Shown in pieces: positions 8,662 through 53,001 of a stretch of DNA of 64,000 bases. A program made the translations under genes and the position numbers. Position 1 is the first letter of the stretch; each line of letters starts with the position of its first letter. Location of the stretch: IMG/VR virus record IMGVR_UViG_3300037067_012889, positions 160,001 to 224,000 of that record; one strand, given 5' to 3'. The notes under the pieces were generated by a model. The model was not told the DNA's origin and ran no database searches. It worked only from the letters and a program-made list of their open reading frames with translations. The stretch comes from a virus. Lineage: Duplodnaviria > Caudoviricetes.

Positions 8662-9492
8662 TCACTCATATCTCCACGCAATCAACTCTTGTTCAACAAG
8701 ACCTGTAGTATATCTGGGTTGCACACTATGTTGTAAGTCTACGATTTTTGTCTTCGCATCAGTTCCACTGAATTGTTCGACAATAAATGGGTGTGCCTTG
8801 TTAGTATAAATGAATTGCTGACCACTCTTCAAAATACACCCAATTAGTGCTGTCTGGTCTTCTGCTGTGAATTCACCACTATAACCAGTGAATTTCTTCT
8901 TGTCATCATAGTATGGAGGGTCTAGGAAAACCACACATTTCTCACATAGTGACTGTATAGTAGTTATCGCATCGTTTTTACAGATTAAAGTTCCCTGCAA
9001 CGCCGCAGAATCACATCGTATCAATTCTTCATTGCAAATTTCTGGATTTTTGTAGCTTCCTGGCGGAACATTGAATCGGCCCTGTTTATTGATACGCATC
9101 AAACCATTGAAACACGTACGCAATAAAAACATGATTCTAGAAGCACGCATGATGGGATCGGTTGGACTAGATGCTCGTATTGCTCGATATGTCTCCAAAG
9201 ATTGGCCATCTGATTTATGGACATATTTATAATCCGGTTTTTTCAATTCTCTGATAAGATCTTCTGGCCGATCTCTAATTACAATATAAAGATTTATCAA
9301 CTCTGCGTTAGTGTCGGCTATAACTCGATGCTTGAACCTATTATGAACCGTCCAATATAAAGCTCCACCACCAATCATTGGCTCACAATACCCAAGCTCC
9401 ATATCACCGCTTAAGAAATTTAAAATTATATGTAATTCCGAAAGCAGATATGTCTTACCACCAGCCCATTTGATAAAAGGTTTCGGATCCAT
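8662..9492 (-). CDS. dam: Dam-type DNA adenine methyltransferase
   Basis: KPFIKWAGGK, EPMIGGGA, FNGLMRINKQGRFNVP and FLDPPY motifs. Confidence 0.93.
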   Translation of the reverse strand: MDPKPFIKWAGGKTYLLSELHIILNFLSGDMELGYCEPMIGGGALYWTVHNRFKHRVIADTNAELINLYIVIRDRPEDLIRELKKPDYKYVHKSDGQSLETYRAIRASSPTDPIMRASRIMFLLRTCFNGLMRINKQGRFNVPPGSYKNPEICNEELIRCDSAALQGTLICKNDAITTIQSLCEKCVVFLDPPYYDDKKKFTGYSGEFTAEDQTALIGCILKSGQQFIYTNKAHPFIVEQFSGTDAKTKIVDLQHSVQPRYTTGLVEQELIAWRYE

Positions 9493-9568: not shown

Positions 9569-10279
9569 ATGCATCCAGGTTTATATGTTGTGTTCGAGGG
9601 ATCGGATTTCTCCGGTAAGAGTACATTGGCACACATGGTTATGGAGGAACTTCGAAATACCGATCTCAATTGTATTCTCACTCATCATCCCGGATCTACT
9701 CCTCTTGGAAAACATCTGCGTAAGCTCGTAAAAACCCCAGAAGAATTTGACGAGCCTGGCGCTGATCCGATAGTCATCGATAGTATGTCGGCGCAGATGT
9801 TGATGATGGTCGATCACAGCAATTTTATCAGCACCAAATTGATTCCATATCTTGATGAAGGTGGTGTTGTTTTAGCAGATAGATCTAATTACATCAGTTG
9901 CATTGTTTATGGTGTAGCAGAGGGTCTAAAATTAACATCGATCAACAAATTGCTGAGTTTAGTGCAATCGCCGATACCAGATAGAGTCTTCATCATCTCG
10001 AACAGATGGGAAACAATCCAAGAGCGCATGAAGAAGTCTGATCGCACTAAGTCAGACAGATTTGATAATAATGAAAACTTATTACGCCATGTTGGCGAAT
10101 TGTATGATAACCTTCTGCAATTAAGCCCAGAATCTTTAATGATGCTGTCGCGATATGTACCATTAGAGCATATTGTGTATCTCAATGGTGACACACCAGC
10201 CATAGAATTAGCAAAAACAGTATCGCAAAAAATAATACGAATGGCAAATGAGAAATCGGCGAATAATGTCGCCCAGTAA
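9569..10279 (+). CDS. tmk: thymidylate kinase
   Basis: P-loop VVFEGSDFSGKST, HPG and LADR motifs; start reset to ATG 9569. Confidence 0.9.
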   Translation: MHPGLYVVFEGSDFSGKSTLAHMVMEELRNTDLNCILTHHPGSTPLGKHLRKLVKTPEEFDEPGADPIVIDSMSAQMLMMVDHSNFISTKLIPYLDEGGVVLADRSNYISCIVYGVAEGLKLTSINKLLSLVQSPIPDRVFIISNRWETIQERMKKSDRTKSDRFDNNENLLRHVGELYDNLLQLSPESLMMLSRYVPLEHIVYLNGDTPAIELAKTVSQKIIRMANEKSANNVAQ

Positions 10280-37427: not shown

Positions 37428-37465
37428 GTCCTGCAGTCGTATGAGATTCCCAAATTTCAAATATA

Positions 37466-37810: not shown

Positions 37811-37831
37811 CCTGTAGTCCTGTAGTCACCT
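37811..37831 (-). repeat. orphan CRISPR-repeat core (AGGTGACTACAGG + ACTACAGG)
   Basis: Exact 13-nt match to the 3' end of the array repeat plus an 8-nt tandem copy. Confidence 0.65.
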
Positions 37832-37858
37832 ATATAGGATTATCAAATTTCGAATACG

Positions 37859-38647
37859 TTACCAACCTCCACCGGCTCCACCGCCGCCAAAATCGCCACC
37901 ACCGCCTGAATAACTGTCGCTTCCTCCGCCACTACTGCCGCTGCTGCTGCTTCCACTACCAATGAAACTGCTACCGAAAGAATCGGAACTAATCGCAATT
38001 ATGACAATAACAATCACTATAATCACAACGATCACGATTATAGTGATGCCAAACCAAGTAGACCAAAAACTAGCAACTGCGGCACCGGCAACGACAGCTG
38101 TGCCAGCGCCGACAGCCCCTGGTACTACACGACCATGTATATTGGCGTCGATAGCTTCGATCGCTACTTTAATACCGGCATGAAAATCGCCAGCCTTGAA
38201 TTGTGGCTTCACCTGATCGGCAAGGATATGGCGGCACACAACATCGGTAAGCGTCCCTTCTAACCCACGCCCAACAGTTATCCAAGTCTTATGTTCTTTA
38301 ATAGCGGCGACAAACAACACCCCATTGTCTTTGTCTTTCTGTCCCAACTTCCATCTTTTGGCCGTCTCGATTGCGAATTGACTAATATCCTGTCCACCTA
38401 AAGTTGGTATAGTCAGGACAACAATTTGGTTGCCAGTTTCTTTCTCCTGCCTAAGAAGTTCATTGCTTAGGCTCTCAACTTGGCTCACCGACAACACTTT
38501 GGCATCGTCATTTATTGGACCACGTAATGTCGGCGTTGCAGCCGCACGTGCAGATTGCATCACCGGCATTAACAACATCGCAAGCATGCCGACAATTGCG
38601 ATTACGACGAGCAATTCAACTAATGTAAAACCGTTCGTGCGTTTCAT
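37859..38647 (-). CDS. TPM-domain membrane protein with a prepilin-type N-terminal methylation leader
   Basis: MKRTNGFTLVELLVVIAIVGML..QSARAAA; TPM motifs WKLGQKDKDNGVL and VGRGLEG; TM helix; Gly-rich tail. Confidence 0.88.
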   Translation of the reverse strand: MKRTNGFTLVELLVVIAIVGMLAMLLMPVMQSARAAATPTLRGPINDDAKVLSVSQVESLSNELLRQEKETGNQIVVLTIPTLGGQDISQFAIETAKRWKLGQKDKDNGVLFVAAIKEHKTWITVGRGLEGTLTDVVCRHILADQVKPQFKAGDFHAGIKVAIEAIDANIHGRVVPGAVGAGTAVVAGAAVASFWSTWFGITIIVIVVIIVIVIVIIAISSDSFGSSFIGSGSSSSGSSGGGSDSYSGGGGDFGGGGAGGGW

Positions 38648-38657
38648 TTAGTATCTC

Positions 38658-39263
38658 TCAGAATTCGACTTTTGGTGCAGTCTTCGCAGCTTCTGTTACT
38701 TCAAAAAGTTCTGCTCGTTTGAATCCGTGCACGTTAGCGACCATTTGACTGAACAGACCACCAACAGTAATGTTATATTCCTTCACAGCTTTATTATATC
38801 GGTGGCGAGCTTCATTAATACGATTTTCTGTACCTTCCAGCTGCGATTGAAGATCTAAGAAGTTCGTATTAGCTTTCAATTCAGGATATTGCTCCTGAAC
38901 TAGAAGTAGCCGTGACAGGGCCGATGACATACCGCCCTGCGCCTCTGCAAACTTTTTCATCTGTTCTGGGTCGGTCGTTGCGGCGTTAATATTTACCTGC
39001 CCGACCTTCGCACGTGCTTCGGTAACATCATTGAATACGTCATGCTCGTGTGTAGCATATCCCTTAACAGTGCTGACGAGGTTCGGTATCAGATCATACC
39101 TACGTTGAAGAGTAGATCCAATATCGGCCACCTTTTCCTGAACAGTATTGAATCCGGTATTGAGGCTACTATAAGTGCCCCACCACGACAACCCAATAAT
39201 AATGATGATGAGTAGTACGACGCCAACAAGACCCAATGCAACGTATAAACAACCCTTCATCAT
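38658..39263 (-). CDS. lemA: LemA family protein
   Basis: LQRRYDLIPNLVSTVKGYATHE; EQYPELKANTNFLDLQSQLEGTENRI. Confidence 0.95.
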   Translation of the reverse strand: MMKGCLYVALGLVGVVLLIIIIIGLSWWGTYSSLNTGFNTVQEKVADIGSTLQRRYDLIPNLVSTVKGYATHEHDVFNDVTEARAKVGQVNINAATTDPEQMKKFAEAQGGMSSALSRLLLVQEQYPELKANTNFLDLQSQLEGTENRINEARHRYNKAVKEYNITVGGLFSQMVANVHGFKRAELFEVTEAAKTAPKVEF

Positions 39264-39312
39264 ATATCTCCTAGACCAATTTAATAGTAAAATACATTAT
39301 ACAAGCTGGAAT

Positions 39313-39538
39313 CATGCAATATCTAGGAGCGAGCGATACTCTCTATTCCTGTTTTTGTTTACAGAAATATTCCTGTAGTCACCTGGGAACGAGCGGTACT
39401 CTCCATTGCAGAAAGGCGGATGGTCAAGATCGGGCTTCCTGTAGTCACCTGGGAACGAGCGGTACTCTCCATTGGAATGAGCTGTGCGAGCAATGGGCCA
39501 ACTCCTGTAGTCACCTGGGAACGAGCGGTACTCTCCAT
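39313..39538 (-). CRISPR. CRISPR array 1: 3 perfect 35-nt repeats, 1 degenerate terminal repeat, 3 spacers
   Basis: CCTGTAGTCACCTGGGAACGAGCGGTACTCTCCAT at 39372, 39438 and 39504 (period 66); degenerate copy 39313-39346; leader TACGCCAACGGGT on the right. Confidence 0.95.
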
Positions 39539-39583
39539 TACGCCAACGGGTTGACGGTCATAATAATACCACTAGTAAATCTG

Positions 39584-39922
39584 TCAGCTACATCGCACTC
39601 TACAATATGCCATGACTCTGTCATATATATAACATACGTCTGGTAAAAGCCAGATTGAATCGTCCCAAAATATCTGACCTTCTAGACCTTTCACGGTCTC
39701 TTCGACACATGAACAGGATACATATGTTACCTTCGATTCGCCAATAGTCAATGTGTTTCTATTCGAACGAATCGTAGGAATACCCATTTGGTCGAAAGAT
39801 CGCATATGCTGACTTAGCAGATCTTCGGCATATCGCTGGAAACAGGCGACCACTACGACATTCCGCTCTCCACGACGAACGGAGTCTATCACATCCTGGA
39901 TCAATTGTCGGCTGAGACCCAT
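39584..39922 (-). CDS. hypothetical protein within the CRISPR locus (112 aa)
   Basis: ATG-started ORF between arrays 2 and 1. Confidence 0.6.
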   Translation of the reverse strand: MGLSRQLIQDVIDSVRRGERNVVVVACFQRYAEDLLSQHMRSFDQMGIPTIRSNRNTLTIGESKVTYVSCSCVEETVKGLEGQIFWDDSIWLLPDVCYIYDRVMAYCRVRCS

Positions 39923-39939
39923 CAGTTCTCGGTTACGTT

Positions 39940-40473
39940 TCAGGCCGGTTGTGTTTCGGTCTCCAACAACGCTTCCAATTCGGCAATTTTCACGTTCAAC
40001 GCTTCGTTTTCTTCTTCGAGTTGTTTAATACGCGCCATCAGTTGGTCGATGATCGCCCTTTGGCGCACCTTCTCACGACGAGCTTGCGTAAGCTGGTCCT
40101 CGATTTGCCGTTGCTTCGGGCTACGTTTGGCCGATGGTGCGAGCCTGTTGCCCGAGATCATCTTCTGCCTCATCTTCCAAATCTTGCCATCAGCCCATTG
40201 CTCCTTACGTGGATAATATTCAAGGAGCTTTTCAAGTTCAAGGAAACTCAAACAGAGATCATCAACGTAGTCGTCCAGCAGGTCTGCTAACTTAAGGTCG
40301 TCAAGAACGTCGTTGTCGGCACGAAACTCCTCGTCGTGATAGACCCTGCTGAGCAGGACGATACGCTTATAAGCGTTAGCGCCGCTCCTCTCCCTCAATT
40401 TCCTCGCTTCCAGCAAGTTTGTCTTGTAGAGCTTGCTTGAGTTTTGTGGGGTCTGATCTGTCGAGTTCATCAA
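39940..40473 (-). CDS. helical protein with a C-terminal coiled coil, within the CRISPR locus
   Basis: GAGGAG RBS; heptad pattern LMARIKQLEEENEALNVKIAELE. Confidence 0.75.
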   Translation of the reverse strand: MMNSTDQTPQNSSKLYKTNLLEARKLRERSGANAYKRIVLLSRVYHDEEFRADNDVLDDLKLADLLDDYVDDLCLSFLELEKLLEYYPRKEQWADGKIWKMRQKMISGNRLAPSAKRSPKQRQIEDQLTQARREKVRQRAIIDQLMARIKQLEEENEALNVKIAELEALLETETQPA

Positions 40474-40609
40474 TAGTTCTCCTCATTCGTTTGTGGAAGT
40501 GTGCCAATGAAGCACAGTCCTTATTGCAATACTTACGACCCTCTTGCAATGGCATCTTGCAGATTGGACAGAAGAAACGAACAATATCAGCCTGTTTCGT
40601 AATTTCCAT
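40376..40609 (-). CDS. possible small Zn-finger protein (CPIC..KYCNKDC)
   Basis: Cys motif present, but it overlaps the next ORF by about 100 nt. Confidence 0.35.
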   Translation of the reverse strand: MEITKQADIVRFFCPICKMPLQEGRKYCNKDCASLAHFHKRMRRTIDELDRSDPTKLKQALQDKLAGSEEIEGEERR

Positions 40610-40619
40610 CCTATCCTGC

Positions 40620-40859
40620 CCTGCAGCCACCTAGAAACGATCACACTCTCTAAATACTGAGTTATCCAGAGAGCAGCAACCTGTAGTCACCTGGGAACGA
40701 GCGGTACTCTCCATCAACTTCGCACGCGGCTAGCACGCGTCCAGCCTGTAGTCACCTGGGAACGAGCGGTACTCTCCATCTGTCCCAACGCATCAGACAC
40801 CAACGCATCAGACAGACAACGCCGCCTGTAGTCACCTGGGAACGAGCGGTACTCTCCAT
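40620..40859 (-). CRISPR. CRISPR array 2: 3 perfect repeats, 1 degenerate repeat, 3 spacers
   Basis: Repeats at 40680, 40745 and 40825; degenerate copy 40620-40653; same leader as array 1. Confidence 0.95.
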
Positions 40860-40893
40860 TACGCCAACGGGTATTAAAGCATGCCACTAGTAA

Positions 40894-40972
40894 AAAGGTG
40901 ACTCTGGCGAGGGCTAACACGGTACGTATTGCCCGCAGCTATTCTCGCCTTCGAGACGTACAGGACGCCTCT
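40894..40972 (-). ncRNA. tracrRNA-like element, copy 1
   Basis: 79-nt element identical in 4 copies; bipartite complementarity to the repeat 3' end. Confidence 0.85.
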
Positions 40973-40985
40973 AAATTGATTCAGT

Positions 40986-41276
40986 CTATTTCGACTGGTC
41001 CTCTTCAATCAGGTTCTCACGGATTTTCACGGCTTCGGCAGTGATATTCCGCAGCAGCATGTCCGCAATCGGGTCCGTAGTCCTGGTACACGCCAGGTGG
41101 CTTGTAATTTCATCCATGAAAATTACCATCGTCATTGCTTCCGGGGTGACGAGACAGTTCCCACCAATTTCCAATTCAAAATTATCGAGATGTGCATGAC
41201 TTGCGGCGTCCAGGTGAACACCACCACGGCAACCATCTGATGCTTTGCCACGCTTATGCAGATAATAGTTACGCAT
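40986..41276 (-). CDS. hypothetical protein (96 aa) directly downstream of the second dCas12f
   Basis: GGAG RBS before ATG 41276. Confidence 0.6.
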   Translation of the reverse strand: MRNYYLHKRGKASDGCRGGVHLDAASHAHLDNFELEIGGNCLVTPEAMTMVIFMDEITSHLACTRTTDPIADMLLRNITAEAVKIRENLIEEDQSK

Positions 41277-41307
41277 TAGTAAATCTCCGGGCGTCAATAT
41301 AGTACAA

Positions 41308-42513
41308 TTATCCCGCTTTTTTCTTGAACTTACGTGCGCCAATCACGTGGATTATGACGTCGATATCGGCTTTATTGCAAGCCTTCTGAATCAACGAACC
41401 CATCTGCTGCCAATCCCAATGAGTCGATTCAATATTGCATCCCTGGACACGACCGACCTTCTCCATATGTCGATTGTTACATAGATCGCCAACTGGTTGA
41501 AATACCACAAGCCGACCCGCACCAGCCATACTCAAACGCCTGACCATCTCTTCGGCGAGCCTGTGATTCCATGTTTTGACGAAATCACGCCATCGACGCG
41601 TCAACTTCTCACGACGAGTAATTGCGATGTTCCGCTTTTTCTTAGATCCTTTATAAAGACGTTGGATTGTCAAGGATCGGCGGGTGTGCTTGATGTCGTT
41701 ACCAAATCGCAATCTGGTGCTTGTCCTACCATTGATGCGGAACAGGATTGGGCGTGAAAATCCACCAGACAAGAAAGCCGTCTTGTTCTTGTCGATGGGC
41801 AATTTCACCTTTGGAATGGAATGACAGATCTTGGCATACCATTTACCATCGCGTTCGAATAAATCGACACCCTTGATACTCCATTCGCCGTCCGCAATCC
41901 TCCAAAACATGTTGCGAATAGAATGGAGCTTGTATGACTTAGTCTTGATCTTGAAGATCATGACGGTGTCATCGTCGAATCGCACTTGCAACTTCCAATC
42001 ATCATCGTCAGTTGCCGGAACGACGATATGACAATCGCTAGTGCAGAACGGGATTTTGCCGCGCTTAGCAGATTGCGGCAATTCGCCAAGACCAGCCAGA
42101 GCGATCATCCAGCGAGGATAGGCTGACTTGATGCCGGACTTCTTAATGAGATCCTTCATCGCTTTTTTGACAGCCAGCTGAATCTGCTTCATACCAAACT
42201 CAGCATGTGTCTCGGCGATAATGGCCCGCAGCCGTTCATCCATCTCAGGGCTGCAAGGATCAACAGAACATCGAATGCGGGGACTAACACGCTTATCAGG
42301 ATGATACAACCATTTCTTGTCGTTCTCCATCCATTCTCGAACGATAAGATGATTACCAGCTTCGTAGTGTAGCCGCAACCAAGCCGCTGCAAAATCATTA
42401 GTAACCTGCTGGATTTTGTCGGCGATGGTAGAGAGACGCTTTTTCTCTACTGCGAAATCTCCATCACTTCCAACTAGATCAACCCTCTTGTTCTTGATAA
42501 CTCTGTACTGCAC
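41308..42513 (-). CDS. Cas12f1-like protein B, RuvC-inactivated and C-terminally truncated (401 aa)
   Basis: GKWYAKIC; RuvC-I site TAFLSGG (no Asp); RuvC-II site LVVFQP (no Glu); WDWQQMGSLIQKACNKADIDV; no Zn finger or RuvC-III; GAGGAG RBS. Confidence 0.85.
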   Translation of the reverse strand: MQYRVIKNKRVDLVGSDGDFAVEKKRLSTIADKIQQVTNDFAAAWLRLHYEAGNHLIVREWMENDKKWLYHPDKRVSPRIRCSVDPCSPEMDERLRAIIAETHAEFGMKQIQLAVKKAMKDLIKKSGIKSAYPRWMIALAGLGELPQSAKRGKIPFCTSDCHIVVPATDDDDWKLQVRFDDDTVMIFKIKTKSYKLHSIRNMFWRIADGEWSIKGVDLFERDGKWYAKICHSIPKVKLPIDKNKTAFLSGGFSRPILFRINGRTSTRLRFGNDIKHTRRSLTIQRLYKGSKKKRNIAITRREKLTRRWRDFVKTWNHRLAEEMVRRLSMAGAGRLVVFQPVGDLCNNRHMEKVGRVQGCNIESTHWDWQQMGSLIQKACNKADIDVIIHVIGARKFKKKAG

Positions 42514-42530
42514 GATTTCTCCTCAAAGGA

Positions 42531-42609
42531 AAAGGTGACTCTGGCGAGGGCTAACACGGTACGTATTGCCCGCAGCTATTCTCGCCTTCGAGACGTACAG
42601 GACGCCTCT
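42531..42609 (-). ncRNA. tracrRNA-like element, copy 2 (between the two effector genes)
   Basis: Identical 79-nt element. Confidence 0.85.
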
Positions 42610-42620
42610 GGATTGATTCA

Positions 42621-43925
42621 TCATGCTGCTTTCTTCTTACGCAATTTGCTCTTGCGTGATTCACCAATCTTCCTAACAGTGACCTTGATGCCGACGACCT
42701 TGCAAGCGTGCTGCAATAACAACTGCATTTGGTACCAATCCCAACCGGTCGATTCGGTGAACCCCTTCATCTTCCCGATATTAGTCAGGTATCTTGATTC
42801 TCGCCATTTGCCAGCTGGCTGATATACTACAACGTGGCCGATTTTGGATTTGACACATCGCTTAACGACGTCTGCGGCCCAACAGCTATTGGTCGTCTTG
42901 ACCATATCACGCCACGTGTCCCTGATCTTGTCGCGCCACTGGATTGGCTTCCTGCCATGTCCTTTCCTGGCACTGGAAGCATATTTGTATGATTCGTTTT
43001 TACCGAATCGTTGTTGCGTCAGCGATTTGCGCACACGTTCGATATGCCTACTGTCCATCAAACCCGTCAAAGTCCTACCATTGATTCGCATCATCATCGA
43101 ATTATGGTAGCCAGCGGTAACGAAAGCCGTCTTCGTGGCGTCCAATTGTGACTTCTCGATATTCGTAATCTTGTAACAGATATGCGCGTACCAACGGCCA
43201 TCACGAAGAACTAACGAAGAAGTGTTGAAGATGAATTCACCAGATGCAATCTTCAATAGAGCTTCACGAATGGTGGCCAAATTACGGCCACCGGTTCGCA
43301 TTTTAAAGACCATTGGACGCAGACGAGTACCGAGTCCTCTTTCAAAGCGTACTTCCAGTTTCCACGGGTCTTTAATCGTTTTCGGAACGATGATGCTGCT
43401 GTTCGAAGTGTAAAACGGAATGGGTGCAGGTTTATGTGCTTGTGGGAATTCGCCCAAGCCGGAAAGAATCGTCATCCATCTCTTATAGGCCGACTTCGAC
43501 GACGGCATTGAAGAGATCGTCTTACCAACGTTTTGCAAAATGATGCCGATTGGTTTCGTTCCAAGATTAGCATGCTCTCTTGTGAGAAGTCTGTAGAGCT
43601 GCCTACTCATCGCTGGATCGCATGAATTAACAGGGCACTTAATGCGTGGCGGTGCATCCTTTTTACCCTTATAGGCTTTCGCCCACTCTTTATCCTTCTC
43701 GATCCAATTGCGAATCACCAGATGATGCCCGGCTTGCTGATGCAAACATAGCCAGTGGTTGCAGTAGTCGTTCGCCATCTGCTGCATTTGGACGGCCAGC
43801 GACAAGAGGCGTTTTTTCTCGTCTACGAAATCACCATCACTGCCAGTCAGTTCGATCCTGATGATTTTCGTGATACCATCAGGCTTCTTCTTACGTGGCT
43901 TCTTCTCTACTTTTTCTTCGCTCAT
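42621..43925 (-). CDS. Cas12f1-like protein A, RuvC-inactivated and C-terminally truncated (434 aa)
   Basis: GRWYAHICY; TAFVTAG; Cas12f1-type RKGHGRK; IGHVVVYQP; WDWYQMQLLLQHACKVVGIKV; ends without Zn finger or RuvC-III. Confidence 0.88.
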   Translation of the reverse strand: MSEEKVEKKPRKKKPDGITKIIRIELTGSDGDFVDEKKRLLSLAVQMQQMANDYCNHWLCLHQQAGHHLVIRNWIEKDKEWAKAYKGKKDAPPRIKCPVNSCDPAMSRQLYRLLTREHANLGTKPIGIILQNVGKTISSMPSSKSAYKRWMTILSGLGEFPQAHKPAPIPFYTSNSSIIVPKTIKDPWKLEVRFERGLGTRLRPMVFKMRTGGRNLATIREALLKIASGEFIFNTSSLVLRDGRWYAHICYKITNIEKSQLDATKTAFVTAGYHNSMMMRINGRTLTGLMDSRHIERVRKSLTQQRFGKNESYKYASSARKGHGRKPIQWRDKIRDTWRDMVKTTNSCWAADVVKRCVKSKIGHVVVYQPAGKWRESRYLTNIGKMKGFTESTGWDWYQMQLLLQHACKVVGIKVTVRKIGESRKSKLRKKKAA

Positions 43926-43998
43926 TTGATCCTCTTAATGATTAGAGGGCCTACATGGATTCACGCCTGTAATCATTGGAAGTTAACAATTCCAAAAT

Positions 43999-44077
43999 AA
44001 AGGTGACTCTGGCGAGGGCTAACACGGTACGTATTGCCCGCAGCTATTCTCGCCTTCGAGACGTACAGGACGCCTCT
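43999..44077 (-). ncRNA. tracrRNA-like element, copy 3
   Basis: Identical 79-nt element; has its own promoter upstream. Confidence 0.85.
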
Positions 44078-44104
44078 GGATTGAGTCTAATTGTTCCATA
44101 AAAG

Positions 44105-44133
44105 GTTGTAGCATGAAGAATAGAAATCATTAA
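44105..44133 (-). promoter_or_regulatory. promoter TTAATG-N17(..TCATGC)-TACAAC for tracr copy 3 and the dCas12f genes
   Basis: Member of the recurring motif family; 17-nt spacing. Confidence 0.55.
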
Positions 44134-44562
44134 CCTAGGAACGGCACCCTCCATTCTCTTGGTTCGATGTGTGGCTCGATTGGTTCCTATAGTCACCTTG
44201 GAACAAACGGTACTCTCCATTACACCTGGGAACGAGCGGTACTCTCCATTCACACACCACTTTACCGTTGAGTGGTGTCCTGCAGTCACCTGGGAACGAG
44301 TGGTACTCTCCATTATGGGAAATCCCACTTTACGGTTTACCTGTAGTCACCTGGGAACGAGCGGTACTCTCATTGGTTTTGCGGCAAACCTCTCTTCCCT
44401 TCTCCTGTAGTCACCTGGGAACGAGTGGTACTCTCCATCGATGGATGAAGAATTCCAGCAACCTGTAGTCACCTGGGAACGAACGGTAAACCCCATTCCA
44501 AAAGCCTGTATCGAGCAAACGGTCGCTCCTGTAGTCACCTGGGAACGAACGGTAAACCCCAT
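44132..44562 (-). CRISPR. CRISPR array 3: 8 polymorphic or partial repeats, 6 spacers of 23-31 nt
   Basis: Repeats at about 44132 (degenerate), 44186, 44223 (partial), 44279, 44340, 44404, 44462 and 44528; same leader. Confidence 0.95.
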
Positions 44563-44595
44563 TACGCCAACGGGTATTAAAGGATATCACTAATA

Positions 44596-44674
44596 AAAGG
44601 TGACTCTGGCGAGGGCTAACACGGTACGTATTGCCCGCAGCTATTCTCGCCTTCGAGACGTACAGGACGCCTCT
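44596..44674 (-). ncRNA. tracrRNA-like element, copy 4
   Basis: Identical 79-nt element upstream of the array 3 leader. Confidence 0.85.
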
Positions 44675-44688
44675 GGATTGAGTCTAAT

Positions 44689-45684
44689 TCACTTTGCACG
44701 TGGCCGCTTCACGCAGCTATTGGGCGAAAGTTGTTTGATACCTTCATTGGAACGCCATTTATTCCAAGCCATGACGCATCCGCGATACATCTCTTCTTGT
44801 GACACCGGCTTCCTATCACTCGACTTCTTGCCGTCGATGGTGCTCCTCTCCAAATAGTTCTTCAAAACCAAACGAGGGTCGCTCTTGTCGAAAAAGCCGA
44901 CGCCGGTCGTAACGGAAATCCAAAATTCACGTGCAGCCGATTGGCATTTTGTAAACGTCTCAAACATAGCGGCGACGACAGGGGCTCGCCAAATATGCTT
45001 TGTGATTTTGCTCTTGTTGGTCTTCAAGAACGTCAAGATCTGCTTCGCCACAATGTGGTATTCGGCATCCATGATATGGCACCGAGAATCAATGTCGAGT
45101 AAATAATGCCTATTCTGCACTTCCCACTTCCAAAGCGAGAATCCGTTGACGGCCACGTTTAACATGCCGCGATCGAACTCCTCATATCCTTCACGCCCGA
45201 GTAAAATAGAGTTGACGACCGTCGTGTTGGAACGCGAATAGTTGCGATCAAACGTGCCGTACAAAATACGGACATCGTCAATTGTCTTACAAGTGTAACG
45301 ATACATCCGAACCTTGTAAATCTGCTGGATGTCGTCCGGAAGAGTAATAAACGCCCATGCCGTGTGCTGCCCGTTGATACGATACTTCGCTTTGTCCTCC
45401 TGGCAATGCGCCGTAGCCAAGATGACTTGTTCTGGGCGAAACAACCCACGTACCATACAACGCTGTAAGTATGCGACGTGGGCATCACGAATCGACCGTT
45501 CGGCGACAAATTCCTTCATCTCCAAGAGTTCAGTACAAAGCTCCTTCGTCAATGTGACGATCTCTTCCTTACCGAGCCTGATTGATTCACCCATTTCTTG
45601 AACATCGGGGCCAGCAGCCTGCCCAGGCTGCATAAGGTGATCAAGATCGACGTTGGACGTTGTGAAGCTAGACTGATCGGACAT
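44689..45684 (-). CDS. ParB/Srx-like (DGQHR-type) domain protein
   Basis: RINGQHT variant of DGQHR; C-terminal DPRLVL..AWNKW; AGGAG RBS. Confidence 0.6.
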   Translation of the reverse strand: MSDQSSFTTSNVDLDHLMQPGQAAGPDVQEMGESIRLGKEEIVTLTKELCTELLEMKEFVAERSIRDAHVAYLQRCMVRGLFRPEQVILATAHCQEDKAKYRINGQHTAWAFITLPDDIQQIYKVRMYRYTCKTIDDVRILYGTFDRNYSRSNTTVVNSILLGREGYEEFDRGMLNVAVNGFSLWKWEVQNRHYLLDIDSRCHIMDAEYHIVAKQILTFLKTNKSKITKHIWRAPVVAAMFETFTKCQSAAREFWISVTTGVGFFDKSDPRLVLKNYLERSTIDGKKSSDRKPVSQEEMYRGCVMAWNKWRSNEGIKQLSPNSCVKRPRAK

Positions 45685-45727
45685 AGCGAAACTCCTATCT
45701 GTGCAAGACAATAAGTCGGAATATCAC

Positions 45728-45756
45728 GTTATAGCACGATGCCAAATAATTATTAA
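45728..45756 (-). promoter_or_regulatory. promoter TTAATA-N17(..TCGTGC)-TATAAC at the head of the CRISPR locus
   Basis: Member of the recurring motif family. Confidence 0.7.
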
Positions 45757-47516: not shown

Positions 47517-50500
47517 TTAAGCAGTCTTTTGTGTCGCTTGTACTAGAGATAATTTACAGCATCCGGCGAGCATTGGTGTTTGTGATGTTGGGCGTTTGGT
47601 AATCTGACCCTCTTGGAAGAAGTCGATCCGCAATCCTTCCGATTCAGCGAATCCTTTCAACGATTGCAGCCATTTCTTATATACACCCTTTTCAATCGGC
47701 TGCCAAGAAGTATGTGTGTAGCCCTCCATAAAATTCCACGAGAATAATACGTATCCTGATTTCTTGGCAGCAGCGATGGCAAGATAACAAAGTTCCTGCC
47801 AATATTCTGTTCTCGATTCAACCATACCCATGGTTGCATCATAGCTAATGACACGTGGATTCTTCCATCGATTCCACAGCTTGTGAATGGTCAAGAATTC
47901 ACGATCAGAATGGGCACAAGCTCCTTTTGGTGCTTTATCGATTGCATCTTTATCAACATTGTGGTAAGTGTTTGGACCGAGTTCAACACCGGCGTCGACA
48001 AGATGCTTATGCTCATACCATTCTTTACCGCCAAGAGTCCAAAATTCACAATCAGAAAAAGAGGTAAGGCCGTAATATCTCAGAGCCTTGACTAGGAACT
48101 CACGATACTCATTACGGCCAGCATATTTACCGCGTTTAGCTTTCTTATATGATCCATGGATAAACCAATCAGGCCGTAGTGAACGAATCTGCTTATCAAA
48201 TTCAGGATCGTAACACCTACTATTCTTATTAGTGTAATCACTAAGCCTGCTTGCGTAACGCGCTTCGTCAGCGTCATCGCAATGCTGCTTAGGTTTGCAT
48301 TCATCTTTACCCGCCAACCGCAGCAATATGCTCTTCATAACCATTGCTGTGTCCTCGAACCAATCGGGACGTAGTGAGCGAATCTGCTTATCAAATTCAG
48401 GATCGTAACAACAACTATTCTTATTAGTATATCTAAATATTGCCCTGCCAAATTTATTACTTGGTTTTGGCTCCCATCTATTAGCTAGTCTCAACAATTC
48501 AGCCTTCCTAATCCTTGCTGTGTTCTCAAACCAGTCAGGACGTAGAGAACGAATCTGCTTATCAAATTCAGGATCATAAGATCCGCTGTTCTTGTTGATA
48601 TAGGCACTCAATTTGCCAGCAAGCAATCTTTCCTCACGATTTATTGAACTGCCCTTTGGTCTCCGTTCTTCTTTTCTCCTTGCCAATCCTAACAGTTTGA
48701 TTTTAGTGGCTGCTGCTGTATCCTCAAACCAATCTGGACGCAAGGCACGAATTTGCCTGTCGAATTTATAATCATAACTCGTAGACTTATTAGTATAGCT
48801 ATACAAAACCCGGCCTAATTGTATTTCGTCGGCATCATCGCTTGTGGTTCGTGGCCTGGTAGCCCCTTTTTCAGCCAGCATAACAAGATGTTTTTTCTTT
48901 TCAACAGAAGTTCTTTCAAACCAATCTGGCCGCAACTGTCGAATCTTACCATCGAAGACCGAATCATAATTACAAACATTTGCTTTACAGGTGTAACCTT
49001 GTAACGCAGAAGAAAGCTTAGAATCGGTAGTACGTGTTGGTCTTGGTGCCCCGCTAGCAGCAAGAGATAATAACACTTCCTTCTTTTCGGCTACCACATT
49101 AAACCAGTCTGGCCGCAGTTGGTGGATTTCAATATCAAAAGCATGATCATAAGTTCCGCGATTTTTATTCAAGTAGCAGTTTAATGCTGCTGATAACTGT
49201 CTCTCTCGTAAATTTTTAGAGTTACCACGCGGCCTTCTTTGGCCATGTTTTGCAAGCGCCAACAATTCTGATTTCTTTTGGGCTGTTTTTTCAAACCAAT
49301 CTGGTCGCAGAGTTCTGATAGATCGATCAAAAGCAGAATCATAGCATGAACTCCTCTTGCTTGTATAGCTTGATAATGATCGACCCAAGCGCCTATTATT
49401 TTCATCTTTAGTGTGCATCGTCGGTCGTTTTGAGTTTGGTACTCTCGCTAACGCTATTAAATCGTCTTTGTTCTTTTGAACCGAGTCTTCAAACCAATCT
49501 GATCTAAGTCTTCGTATTTCAGTATCGAAAATCACATCATAATTCTTTTTCTTATTAGTGTATTCGCCGAGCCTACCAGCAAGTCGTTTCTCTTCATGGT
49601 CTACAGCATCTCTATTTGGTCTTTTTCCTCCGCTCTTCGCTAGTTCTATCAACTTCCTTTTGTTCTCTCTCGCCGAATTCGCATTAAAGCGAATCAAGAT
49701 CCTTTCAATCTCGTCAAAATCATCTAGCCCGTTGATGATTCCAAAGTAATCGGTGATGCCGATTACTTTCAGTTTACTGATAGCTTCTTTGACCTCTGGA
49801 TCATTCATGAACTCTTTGAACGATAGCTTGCTAAGCCGTTGGTCGCGTTTGCGGATGATTTCTTCTAACGCTACACGATCGTTTTTGTCGATGACGTCAT
49901 ATTGCATCAACAAGCTTATAGCTAAAATTGGAGTTATGGCAACGCCGTGCTTGGCACATTGCTTACAGAGCATTTCAATCAACTCATTAGCAGACGCACC
50001 GGCGGCGGACTCTTGCAGAATTCGCTGTAAAATTTCGTTGTTCTGCAGCGAATTAATTTGCAACCTGAATTCGTCTCTTTCCTTATTTATTGCAACTCGA
50101 CGACGCTGCGGCAAAGTCAACATAAATGTATCGGTGAAGTCAAGGCCGCTACAGATCGCCTTAATCCTGATTGCGATTTGCAGGTTGGCATTCTTGACCA
50201 CATCCTGGTCTTCATCATCGAGGCTTACCTCAAAGATAACGACTCTTGAAAGATTTGGCGACAGATGCTTCGGGTTCTTCTTGTGGCGTAACGCACGCCC
50301 AACACACCGTTGGATAAATCGTTGCAGAGAACTGGTGAGACGCGGATTAAATGTTTGAGCACATTCAACCCAGTCCATACCTTCGTCAAATAACTTGATA
50401 GCTATGACAACATCATAATCTCTCGGAGAATCTATAATAGCATCAAGCTTAGCTTTGCGCAGATGCTTGTGGTTTGAAATAAGTGTCTTACCGTCATCAG

Positions 50501-51461
50501 ACCCAAAGTTGAGAATCCGAACACCTTTACATTTACTGAGCAGGAGCTTCTGCAAGTCGAGTGCTTGCTTGGCACCATCAACGTACATGATAGTCGGCAA
50601 AGGATGTTTTTTGTATTCATCGATATATGCCTTCAATAATTCGGGATAATCCATGGCCCCCATGAGGCTCGGTTTATTTGATATATCTTCAGTCTCAGCG
50701 AGACGGTCGAAGTCAGATTGATTAACAGCACGATAGAATCGAAGGAATACTCCGAAGTCGGGGCAACATCCATCATGATAATGCTCCTTCAAAAGCCGTC
50801 GAAATCGGCTAAACTCCTCAGATGTTGGCTGGCCACCATCGCTACGAAAGTCTGTGGCTGTGAATGCGTGAACTTCGGAGCATCTATCAATACATTTCCT
50901 CAGGATTGAACCTAATAGATTCTCGTCCTTCATATCGCTGTGATGAACTTCGTCGACGAGCAAAACCACATCTGACATATCGATGGTTTCATCATCCAAA
51001 GCCAAATCAAATGCCTTATAACTAGAAACGCGAACCGTGCCACCTGGACCATTCAGAAATCGTTTCATCGACGCAGATTTCTGTATCTGGCTCTCTTTAA
51101 CACTTTCATACGACAAGGTATATGTATTTATTATCTTATTCTTGTCTTTTTCAACAGCACACCAATCGCCATCCTTGGTATATTTAGTGAAATTGTGATT
51201 GATTCCCAGTTGCGGTGTGATGACGATAACTTTCTTATGCCGTCTGACAAAAGCAGCATAAGCAAGCATCACGTTGGTTTTGCCGCTGCCGGTTGGAGAT
51301 TCAACCAGCGTAAGACGATTCTGCTTCATATGGCCGATCATGCCACATTGATATCGCCGCAGAATTATAGGTGATTGTCCCATCTTCTCAGCGAGAACGA
51401 TGGATTTGGGTGCTACTTTACCAGCAAGGACGCCGTTTCGAATAGTAATAGTTGAATTCAT
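47517..51461 (-). CDS. SF2 helicase with 8 LRPDWF (helicase-associated-like) repeats and an unassigned C-terminal domain (1314 aa)
   Basis: SPTGSGKT, LVDEVHH, TAT, LFDEGMD and QRCVGRALR motifs; 8 repeats of about 60-65 aa. Confidence 0.88.
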   Translation of the reverse strand: MNSTITIRNGVLAGKVAPKSIVLAEKMGQSPIILRRYQCGMIGHMKQNRLTLVESPTGSGKTNVMLAYAAFVRRHKKVIVITPQLGINHNFTKYTKDGDWCAVEKDKNKIINTYTLSYESVKESQIQKSASMKRFLNGPGGTVRVSSYKAFDLALDDETIDMSDVVLLVDEVHHSDMKDENLLGSILRKCIDRCSEVHAFTATDFRSDGGQPTSEEFSRFRRLLKEHYHDGCCPDFGVFLRFYRAVNQSDFDRLAETEDISNKPSLMGAMDYPELLKAYIDEYKKHPLPTIMYVDGAKQALDLQKLLLSKCKGVRILNFGSDDGKTLISNHKHLRKAKLDAIIDSPRDYDVVIAIKLFDEGMDWVECAQTFNPRLTSSLQRFIQRCVGRALRHKKNPKHLSPNLSRVVIFEVSLDDEDQDVVKNANLQIAIRIKAICSGLDFTDTFMLTLPQRRRVAINKERDEFRLQINSLQNNEILQRILQESAAGASANELIEMLCKQCAKHGVAITPILAISLLMQYDVIDKNDRVALEEIIRKRDQRLSKLSFKEFMNDPEVKEAISKLKVIGITDYFGIINGLDDFDEIERILIRFNANSARENKRKLIELAKSGGKRPNRDAVDHEEKRLAGRLGEYTNKKKNYDVIFDTEIRRLRSDWFEDSVQKNKDDLIALARVPNSKRPTMHTKDENNRRLGRSLSSYTSKRSSCYDSAFDRSIRTLRPDWFEKTAQKKSELLALAKHGQRRPRGNSKNLRERQLSAALNCYLNKNRGTYDHAFDIEIHQLRPDWFNVVAEKKEVLLSLAASGAPRPTRTTDSKLSSALQGYTCKANVCNYDSVFDGKIRQLRPDWFERTSVEKKKHLVMLAEKGATRPRTTSDDADEIQLGRVLYSYTNKSTSYDYKFDRQIRALRPDWFEDTAAATKIKLLGLARRKEERRPKGSSINREERLLAGKLSAYINKNSGSYDPEFDKQIRSLRPDWFENTARIRKAELLRLANRWEPKPSNKFGRAIFRYTNKNSCCYDPEFDKQIRSLRPDWFEDTAMVMKSILLRLAGKDECKPKQHCDDADEARYASRLSDYTNKNSRCYDPEFDKQIRSLRPDWFIHGSYKKAKRGKYAGRNEYREFLVKALRYYGLTSFSDCEFWTLGGKEWYEHKHLVDAGVELGPNTYHNVDKDAIDKAPKGACAHSDREFLTIHKLWNRWKNPRVISYDATMGMVESRTEYWQELCYLAIAAAKKSGYVLFSWNFMEGYTHTSWQPIEKGVYKKWLQSLKGFAESEGLRIDFFQEGQITKRPTSQTPMLAGCCKLSLVQATQKTA

Positions 51462-51466
51462 AGTTT

Positions 51467-51495
51467 GTTATAGCACGAAAACAGGGAATTATTAA
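51467..51495 (-). promoter_or_regulatory. promoter TTAATA-N17(..TCGTGC)-TATAAC, leaderless (ATG 5 nt downstream)
   Basis: Member of the recurring motif family. Confidence 0.7.
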
Positions 51496-51510
51496 CTCAG
51501 ATATTCTAGT

Positions 51511-53001
51511 TCAGTCATTCTTAAACCAATCTGGACGCAGAGCACGAATCTTCGCATCAAAATCTGCGTCGTACGTTTTGCAGCTTTTGTTTGTGTATCT
51601 GCGCAACGTATAATATAAAGCATGCATTGCGGTCGGTTTCGCTTCTCCGTTTTTAGCTATCTCTAGAAGACTTTGTTTCTTTATAATTGTATTATCAAAC
51701 CAATCAGGCCGCAGCTTAGATATCTCCGCATGAAATTCCGGGTCATAACAATTACGGCCTGATTTCTTGCAAGTGTATCTAGTAAGTGCTGCACCCAATT
51801 TATCAGTCGGTCTTATGGCTCCGCTTTTGGCTAATTTTGTCAGCTTTCGTTTGGTTTGGCGTATCGTCCCACATGCTACCCTAAACCAATCGGGGCGAAG
51901 GTTATATATTTCTGCAACAAACTCAGAGTCACTGTGGGTTTTTAAATCTTCAGCTAAACGCCCAGCCAAACTCCGCATATGTGGGTCTTTTGACCTGACA
52001 TGTGGCCTGTCTTTCCCATTTTTAGCCATTTCTAGCAATTCTGATCTTCTAACTTCAGGCAGCAGGCTTTTTGGAAACCAATCTGGACGTAGCTCTTTTA
52101 TTGCTGCAGAAAATTCTGGGTCAAAATAATAGCCTTTGTGGATGAAGTTGTTTAACCATCTTGAAAGTGAAAATTCGCCTTCAAATCTTTCACTCCTGTT
52201 CTTACATAGCTCACGCGGCCTATCGGCACCATCAGTAGCAAGCTTTAGTAATTGCTGCTTGTAAATGTTGATACGATCAAACCACCCTGGACGCATTTCG
52301 CGAATCTTAGCGTTGAATTCTGGATCGAAAACGCCGCTATTTTCATTAGTATATCTCTGCAATGCCGCCCCCAATGCAATCTTGCAGTTCGGCTTCTCTT
52401 CTTGCTCTAGTTGTGCTAATTCAAACAACAATCGCTTATTTCTGTCTGATCGATGCTCCAGCCAATCGGGATGTAAAGCACGCATTTGGGCATCAAACTC
52501 AGCATCATAATCATTACTATTTTTATTAGTATAGTTATATAGAGCGGATGCCAATCTCAATTCATCGGACGCATTTTTGCTGGATGAAGGACGTCTCGAC
52601 ATCGATAACAACGTGCTTTTGATTTCCTCTCCCGAAGTTTTAGGTTTGGTAGGAAACCAGTCTGGTCTCAAAGCACGAATTTCATCATCGAATTCAAGTT
52701 GGCAATATCTGCTGCTGCGGTTTGAAGTATATCTTCCCAACGCCTGGCCAAGTCTTGTCTTCTTTGTTGGTTTAGGTGCTCCACTTTTAGCTATTTGTAT
52801 CAACAATCTAGTATTTTCCGCGACAGAATCATAGAACCAGTCGGGTTGCAATCTACGAATCTCTGCGTCAAATTCAGCATCATAAGACAAACCAGGAGTA
52901 GTATATCTTCGCAATGCCGCCGCAAGCTCATACTCCTCAGATCCTCTTCTTGAGAGAGTAAGACGAGGCTTTCTGACCGGCAGATATTCAGATTCAGCCA
53001 T
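51511..53001 (-). CDS. all-repeat protein with 8 LRPDWF repeats (496 aa)
   Basis: Eight YD.EFD..IR.LRPDWF-type units. Confidence 0.85.
   Translation of the reverse strand: MAESEYLPVRKPRLTLSRRGSEEYELAAALRRYTTPGLSYDAEFDAEIRRLQPDWFYDSVAENTRLLIQIAKSGAPKPTKKTRLGQALGRYTSNRSSRYCQLEFDDEIRALRPDWFPTKPKTSGEEIKSTLLSMSRRPSSSKNASDELRLASALYNYTNKNSNDYDAEFDAQMRALHPDWLEHRSDRNKRLLFELAQLEQEEKPNCKIALGAALQRYTNENSGVFDPEFNAKIREMRPGWFDRINIYKQQLLKLATDGADRPRELCKNRSERFEGEFSLSRWLNNFIHKGYYFDPEFSAAIKELRPDWFPKSLLPEVRRSELLEMAKNGKDRPHVRSKDPHMRSLAGRLAEDLKTHSDSEFVAEIYNLRPDWFRVACGTIRQTKRKLTKLAKSGAIRPTDKLGAALTRYTCKKSGRNCYDPEFHAEISKLRPDWFDNTIIKKQSLLEIAKNGEAKPTAMHALYYTLRRYTNKSCKTYDADFDAKIRALRPDWFKND

Follow-up and report, generated by a model that had tools for sequence, protein, structure and literature searches.

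Organization of the locus

In this study, a locus related to CRISPR was analysed in a 64,000-nt stretch of viral DNA (Caudoviricetes; positions 160,001 to 224,000 of IMG/VR record IMGVR_UViG_3300037067_012889; hereafter the window). The locus lies on the minus strand between window positions 37,811 and 45,756, and the whole record is a 364-kb jumbo-phage genome (363,885 bp, CheckV 100% complete) in which a terminase gene is present. An earlier note, made from the letters alone, had described two paralogues of a nuclease-dead Cas12f (dCas12f), three repeat-spacer arrays and four trans-activating CRISPR RNAs (tracrRNAs), and this order and content were confirmed. In minus-strand order, the features are as follows (L and G numbers denote the loci and genomes compared):

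45730..45756, minus: phage promoter motif (TTAA-N14-extended -10), predicted to head the transcript into tracrRNA copy 1 and array 3
44596..44674, minus: tracrRNA copy 1 (79-nt core)
44134..44575, minus: array 3, comprising a 13-nt leader, 6 spacers, 7 repeats of which the 5' part varies and one is truncated, and a degenerate terminal repeat
44107..44133, minus: second copy of the promoter motif, upstream of tracrRNA copy 2 and effector A; same place in L001, L003 and L004
43999..44077, minus: tracrRNA copy 2
43966..43975, minus: repeat handle of 10 nt within the A leader, probably an array remnant
42621..43925, minus: dCas12f-A, 434 aa; D225-equivalent T270, E324-equivalent Q369; zinc finger and RuvC-III deleted; GHGR hairpin tip kept
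42531..42609, minus: tracrRNA copy 3
41308..42513, minus: dCas12f-B, 401 aa; equally dead; without the 10-residue hairpin tip and the WED hairpin; start of REC helix altered
40894..40972, minus: tracrRNA copy 4
40620..40872, minus: array 2, with leader, 3 repeats, 3 spacers and a degenerate terminal repeat abutting the zinc-finger open reading frame (ORF)
40376..40630, minus: accessory gene 1, a small C4 zinc-finger protein, overlapping the next gene; conserved in 13 loci
39940..40470, minus: accessory gene 2, a 176-aa protein with a helical N-domain and a 55-residue coiled coil; conserved in 16 loci
39323..39551, minus: array 1, with leader, 3 repeats, 3 spacers and a degenerate 5' half repeat
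37811..37830, minus: orphan 12-nt repeat handle immediately preceding a start codon; its 8-nt end duplication also occurs in the arrays of relatives

Effector proteins

The two effectors, which are 41% identical to each other, have the WED/REC/RuvC architecture and the 400-700 aa size class of Cas12f. A profile built from the relatives of A found its best match in AsCas12f1 (E 5e-30), the match to the sigmaE-linked dCas12f being far weaker (1e-10). Moreover, a structure model (pLDDT, the predicted local distance difference test score, of 85.5) matched AsCas12f1 at E 4e-20, and the fold match to Cas12m was far weaker. Searches with hidden Markov models and with structures thus upheld the identification as a Cas12f, and the loss of the catalytic triad and the zinc finger upheld the description as dead. 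Among 170 clade members, the RuvC-I Asp and the C-terminal CxxC were found in none, and Gln stood at RuvC-II in 138. The pattern of the clade is Thr or Ser at the D225 position and Gln, within a QP motif, at the E324 position, and the chains stop short of the zinc finger and D401. At the level of sequence, both effectors were therefore shown to lack a nuclease active site, with RuvC triad and zinc finger lost. In the wider search, 236 clusters at 50% identity scored below 1e-30, of which some may be ordinary Cas12f. The ratio of nonsynonymous to synonymous substitutions (dN/dS) was in the range 0.07-0.12 in A and 0.06-0.17 in B; between distant pairs, synonymous sites approached saturation.

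The tracrRNA, the arrays and the promoter motif

The four tracrRNA copies, exactly four genome-wide, share an identical 79-nt core, and two of them are identical over 94 nt. In nearly all loci with enough flank, the core is directly upstream of an effector. Its fold consists of two stems, in which 10 of the 19 pairs are compensatory. The last 5-6 nt of the repeat are paired with the loop of stem 1, and the 7-13 nt preceding those with the 3' tail; across 15 loci, both segments vary in step with the repeat, as a covarying split anti-repeat. The anti-repeat duplexes had an energy of -13.0 kcal/mol for cognate and -5.7 kcal/mol for non-cognate combinations (0/20000 permutations, with kinship among loci ignored). 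The compensatory stem pairs and the cognate energies bear out the role assigned to this RNA, and the two-segment pairing, as in Cas12f, establishes that the arrays are oriented on the minus strand. A search of the RNA against Rfam returned zero matches.

The three arrays hold 13 recognisable 35-nt repeats (7+3+3), plus degenerate terminal copies, and 12 spacers of 23-45 nt. A single repeat and a single leader had been proposed for all arrays. The 13-nt leader does precede the first repeat of each array, on the minus strand (it had been quoted on the plus strand), but the array-3 repeats differ by 1-4 bases in their 5' part and one is shortened to 27 nt. Across relatives, repeat conservation is confined to the last 12-13 nt, and the 5' parts vary even inside one phage. 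The "mini-repeat" ahead of A was reduced to the 10-nt handle at 43966-43975, which is probably a remnant since L001 and L004 have arrays at that position. In the whole genome, the promoter motif occurs 20 times, always with 14-nt spacing; other spacings gave 0-1 copies. Within the spacers, an internal 15-nt duplication (window 40780-40824) and a 9-nt word common to two neighbouring spacers (44250-44339) suggest slippage or recombination in the arrays.

The paralogue pair

In a midpoint-rooted FastTree phylogeny, A and B formed one clade (support 0.965), each was monophyletic (1.0), and together they were sister to the single-copy genes. The A-B pairs are on at least eight phage contigs, five seen in tandem and the others inferred from contigs of equal length. 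On the evidence of this tree, A and B stem from one duplication that has been maintained in at least eight phage contigs. On long contigs, every B was accompanied by A (8 pairs), and the reading frames are intact in all eight pairs. The tip containing GHGR and the WED hairpin are absent from 8/8 B proteins, in which the start of the REC helix also differs; the GHGR tip motif is kept in about 95% of the clade.

In AsCas12f1, R280 sits in the hairpin tip. In protomer A only, this residue touches the target strand and guide stem 2 takes in the hairpin (10.1101/2023.07.03.547593). In addition, the protospacer-adjacent motif (PAM) is read by protomer A alone, and the C-lobe of protomer B is disordered (10.1101/2023.07.03.547593). 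The losses of B thus map to protomer-A jobs, because AsCas12f1 uses the missing tip in protomer A only. From this comparison, a working A-B heterodimer, in which A would keep the target-engaging features of protomer 1 that B has lost, has in our judgement close to an even chance of being correct. No paper on Cas12f paralogue heterodimers was found in a literature search.

Targets of the guides

For the 12 spacers of the phage, no targets were found among GenBank phages, 401 + 201 Planctomycetota genomes and five exact scans of viral contigs; the matches were at chance level and none extended, and no PAM could be derived from them. Self-targeting in this phage genome (G000) and in G003, G004 and G005 was the same as in shuffles. 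The 67% GC spacer had been taken as a sign of a host target. Such a spacer does exist, but among the genome's own 30-mers 1.2% are equally rich, which gives a chance of about 0.13 for one of 12, and the sign is a weak one.

Among relatives, the arrays of L004 had zero significant target matches, and a spacer of L005 matched a polymerase-X-like gene weakly (24/32). The relative L010, whose effector is 29% identical to A, has the same QP and GHGR motifs, the tracrRNA and the accessory genes. Its two matching spacers are as follows:

L010:9377-9411 and 9810-9845: spacers matching Planctomycetia AAA_25 helicase and cytochrome b genes

The first spacer of its downstream array was exact over the first 29 nt to the AAA_25 helicase gene (E 9e-8, in 1/401 genomes), with homologues in two more genomes that carry mainly synonymous changes. 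Another spacer matched the cytochrome b gene in two genomes (30/36 and 29/36), with differences mostly at third positions. AAA_25-type helicases are typical of integrated elements, and the gene is absent from L010's own contig, which is about half complete. Both targets are mid-gene and on both strands; because one spacer is antisense and one sense, the target of L010 is DNA. For guides against host and competitor genes, the support comes through L010 alone, and for the present phage the earlier proposal of about 12 guides against such genes, with silencing as the outcome, can be put forward only by extension, its own spacers having no match. Thirteen of the 15 L010 spacers begin with G.

Array-less bacterial versions, consisting of an extracytoplasmic function (ECF) sigma gene, tracrRNA, dCas12f and one half-repeat with guide, occur in three Planctomycetota genomes:

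L014:7543-7559 and 9336-9370
L015:892-908
L043:9868-9884

In these loci, the guide matches the locus's own upstream intergenic DNA (16/17, 14/17 and 14/17), on the reverse strand and 200-300 nt upstream of its own tracrRNA. Guide and site covary, the flank is shared, a mismatch falls at guide position 11 in all three, and the sigmas share an ANAV/NAV tail. The self-target site covers a TA-NNN-T hexamer, a putative promoter, which suggests autorepression in the array-less loci. With regard to the 5' T- or C-rich PAM of Cas12f1, the target flanks of the relatives disagree with one another; the effectors there have diverged.

Accessory genes

In an all-against-all comparison of 25 loci, the only conserved neighbours were the zinc-finger ORF and the 176-aa ORF, right after the last repeat. 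The earlier note had listed a 96-aa ORF and "2-3 ORFs"; the former is not conserved, and the two ORFs after array 2 proved to be conserved components. By their conservation, the two genes are parts of the dCas12f system, and the 176-aa gene was found in 1/401 Planctomycetota genomes, the same genome that has the effector. For the 176-aa protein, the coiled coil was the sole fold match (the N-domain was barely covered), and DUF3102, helix-turn-helix (HTH), Plasmid_parti_N and RegA were weak leads. A frameshift fusion of the two ORFs was considered but discarded, since the downstream one is equipped with a Shine-Dalgarno sequence and a start of its own. The pair would be co-expressed partners of the effectors, most simply a DNA-binding co-repressor or regulator. 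In G566, a half-repeat with guide and the two accessory genes occur a second time, 22 kb from the main locus (L078:13357-13700), there lacking effector and tracrRNA.

Genome, host and spread

The absence of cas1 and cas4 from the window extends to the complete genome (whole-genome search, controls positive), and a sigma-70 region 2 gene is likewise absent from it (search control positive). Of the TniQ, TnsB and TnsC genes that go with the Cas12k (V-K) CAST systems, TniQ gave zero matches in the phage genome in a search whose positive control was likewise silent, and there was no conserved transposase among the locus neighbours. Near-identical DNA was present in a groundwater metagenome, possibly the sample of origin, with partial matches in wastewater runs. 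The dead Cas12f clade, of which 170 sequences were examined, is linked to Planctomycetota. A Planctomycetota host is likely because the cellular genomes found with effector or tracrRNA were only Thermoguttaceae, Planctomycetaceae, or genomes drawn from that order or family. In another genome of the family Thermoguttaceae (G752), a tracrRNA and array of the dCas12f family lie beside an integrase-like gene (L068:1481-1768), the effector being beyond the contig end.

Proposed mechanism and alternatives

We consider it probable that the locus encodes a phage-borne, multiplexed RNA-guided DNA-binding repressor, similar to CRISPR interference (CRISPRi). Transcripts from the phage promoter class would yield tracrRNA and precursor CRISPR RNA, and the last 12-13 nt of each repeat would pair with the tracrRNA at the two covariation-supported places. 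From what is known of Cas12f, a Cas12f-type dimer would load this duplex, open a PAM-flanked site and stay bound without cutting. Bound complexes may then act on host genes and co-resident mobile elements by blocking promoters, elongating polymerase or replication, as the targets of relatives suggest. Because it has no cas1 or cas4, the phage itself does not acquire spacers, and these would be supplied by host machinery. Gene duplication in the phage lineage may have been followed by a working A-B dimer. A bolder form of this proposal, which we regard as somewhat doubtful, is that this is the first natural heterodimeric Cas12, in which A would read the PAM and hold the R-loop, B would be a structural second protomer, and both, with the zinc-finger/coiled-coil pair, would reprogramme host and rival transcription from the phage.

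The presence of arrays in all viral loci compared favours the repressor. Several points weigh against it: no target was found for the phage's own spacers, simple roadblocking leaves the role of the accessory proteins unexplained, and the irregular array 3, with its truncated repeat and 23-45-nt spacers, may contain non-functional guides. Furthermore, an ECF sigma gene is upstream in four related loci (L007, L014, L015 and L043), although absent from this phage, which hints that part of the family may act by activation. The main alternative, which we judge unlikely, builds on this last point: dead Cas12f would be a targeting module, and the accessory proteins, with ECF sigma where present, would give the output, such as activation or recruitment of host machinery, convergent with the sigmaE-dCas12f systems. 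The accessory pair after the array in 13-16 loci, its occurrence in the one effector-bearing Planctomycetota genome and the C-terminal truncation, which is the same as in sigmaE-linked dCas12f (PMC13472631), are consistent with it. However, the complete genome has no sigma-70 region 2 gene, the L010 targets are mid-gene and on both strands, and a start 46 bp downstream of the self-target flank would be directed away from the operon and lie antisense to the sigma gene.

The composition of the dimer is a separate matter. A and B may instead each be a homodimeric repressor, independent of the other and with a different PAM, or B may act on A as a dominant-negative tuner, a possibility that we take seriously while holding it to be the wrong one somewhat oftener than the right one. 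The strongly selected RuvC lobe that B retains and its own tracrRNA copy fit an independent effector as well and thus count against the A-B dimer, the altered REC helix of B is near the PAM-reading region, and single-copy relatives evidently function without B. Against independence stand the constant company of A in the eight pairs and the lack in B of a motif so widely kept. It is improbable that the system acts mainly on RNA, with a protein-tracrRNA complex capturing repeat handles in phage mRNA leaders or sequestering host CRISPR RNAs and DNA targeting being secondary. Handles do occur just before start codons (37811-37830, the zinc-finger ORF, and several in G003, G004 and G005), and their dispersal is above chance, but many dispersed handles have no ORF downstream, and the long diverse arrays and the sense-strand spacer match argue for DNA guides. 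Finally, a decaying CRISPR locus could be suspected from the irregular arrays, the missing adaptation genes and the lack of targets for this phage. This explanation is largely refuted and can hardly hold, since dN/dS is about 0.1 in both effector genes, in line with the check that the earlier note had named; the eight pairs with intact frames, the identical inactivation in 170 proteins and the covarying RNA also contradict it.

Comparison with known systems

Cas12m (V-M) and TldR occur naturally as RNA-guided binders of DNA and silence with no cleavage, as is proposed for the phage system. Cas12m is about 600 aa and tracrRNA-independent, and TldR is TnpB-derived and uses one omegaRNA (PMC12669027, PMC11656645). 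The phage system would work like these but be built from Cas12f1; it differs from Cas12m in its tracrRNA and smaller proteins, and from TldR in having arrays instead of a single omegaRNA. With AsCas12f1 of type V-F (PDB 7WJU, 8J12; 10.1101/2023.07.03.547593), it shares the WED/REC/RuvC fold, a size of about 420 aa, the GHGR hairpin (in A), a CRISPR array and a separate tracrRNA with two repeat:anti-repeat segments. Unlike AsCas12f1, it has lost the D225, E324 and D401 equivalents and the zinc finger, its tracrRNA core is only about 80 nt, and it is phage-borne with two paralogues and dedicated accessory genes. Judged by its residues, it falls outside V-F1, the RuvC D-E-D triad being absent.

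The layout had been thought to match no known system exactly. An array-associated cluster of dead, C-terminally truncated Cas12f, for which repression was proposed, was already mentioned by Hoffmann et al. (PMC13472631, Extended Data Fig. 1a,b). That cluster, compared by description only, likewise has dead Cas12f beside an array without sigmaE; its example is an uncharacterised Chitinophagaceae genome with guides to efflux promoters. The same paper contains no phage clade, Planctomycetes (0 occurrences), paralogue pair or zinc-finger/176-aa accessory genes. The sigmaE-linked dCas12f (PMC13472631; PDB 9N9C) is also dead and truncated and has self-targeting guides, and ECF sigma stands beside some relatives of the phage system; it has a fused single guide RNA and an obligatory rpoE, whereas the phage has tracrRNA, arrays and no sigma in its genome. 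V-U24, V-U43 and V-U44 are inactivated Cas12 branches as well, V-U40-43 lying within the Cas12f1 clade (Altae-Tran et al., PMC10691335). V-U24 goes with an HTH protein whose function is unknown, and these three were never characterised (PMC10691335). By description only, the phage dCas12f clade may already bear one of these labels. Array-linked dead Cas12f is thus already known, mentioned only in passing in papers, and what is new is the conserved A/B split, the accessory pair and the targets in relatives, with the dispersed guide handles as a lesser trait.

These findings suggest that natural CRISPRi-like effectors with an 80-nt tracrRNA make up a large phage family, as yet uncharacterised, and provide the first concrete targets for the dead Cas12f family, namely a host respiratory gene, a mobile-element helicase and its own promoter region. 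The natural A-B split, if true, would show the surfaces that each protomer of the asymmetric Cas12f dimer needs, until now addressed by structures and engineering only. In addition, phage dCas12f would offer a compact programmable DNA binder.

Other features of the window and of related genomes

The 340-aa, 96-aa and 112-aa ORFs had zero homologues in any compared locus and are treated as passengers. The 340-aa ORF (window 44689-45711, minus), called ParB-like in the earlier note, found no backing in Pfam, NCBIfam, PHROGs names or PDB; its only match was phrog_5931 (unknown function), and its NGQH motif bears a putative resemblance to ParB/DGQHR-type domains. Genes for LemA and a TPM-domain protein, the latter with a pilin-type N-methyl leader, occupy window 37859-39263 (minus), between the degenerate 5' half repeat and the 3' handle, and are far from the effector in G003 and G004. 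Window 47517-53001 (minus) holds a helicase-like ORF of 1314 aa and one of 496 aa in which a repeat of about 60 residues ending RPDWF recurs many times, with the same phage promoter motif ahead.

Elsewhere in G000, an orphan one-spacer mini-array lies 62 kb from the locus (C1:137404-137482, minus). Dispersed repeat handles were found at C1:9930-9943 (plus), 273653-273666 (plus) and 107110-107123 (minus), and at window 37811-37830 and 37430-37438 (minus). An upstream hairpin ending GGATCC is common to the dispersed G000 handles, with three orphans within one mismatch versus 0.6 expected. The mini-array and handles are possibly stand-alone guides or mRNA-leader handles. The related phage G004 has five dispersed handles with identical 16-nt upstream context (C1:182, 3405, 14304 and 48782, plus; 12808, minus) and a fourth, distant array adjoining a tRNA (C1:123600-124030, minus).

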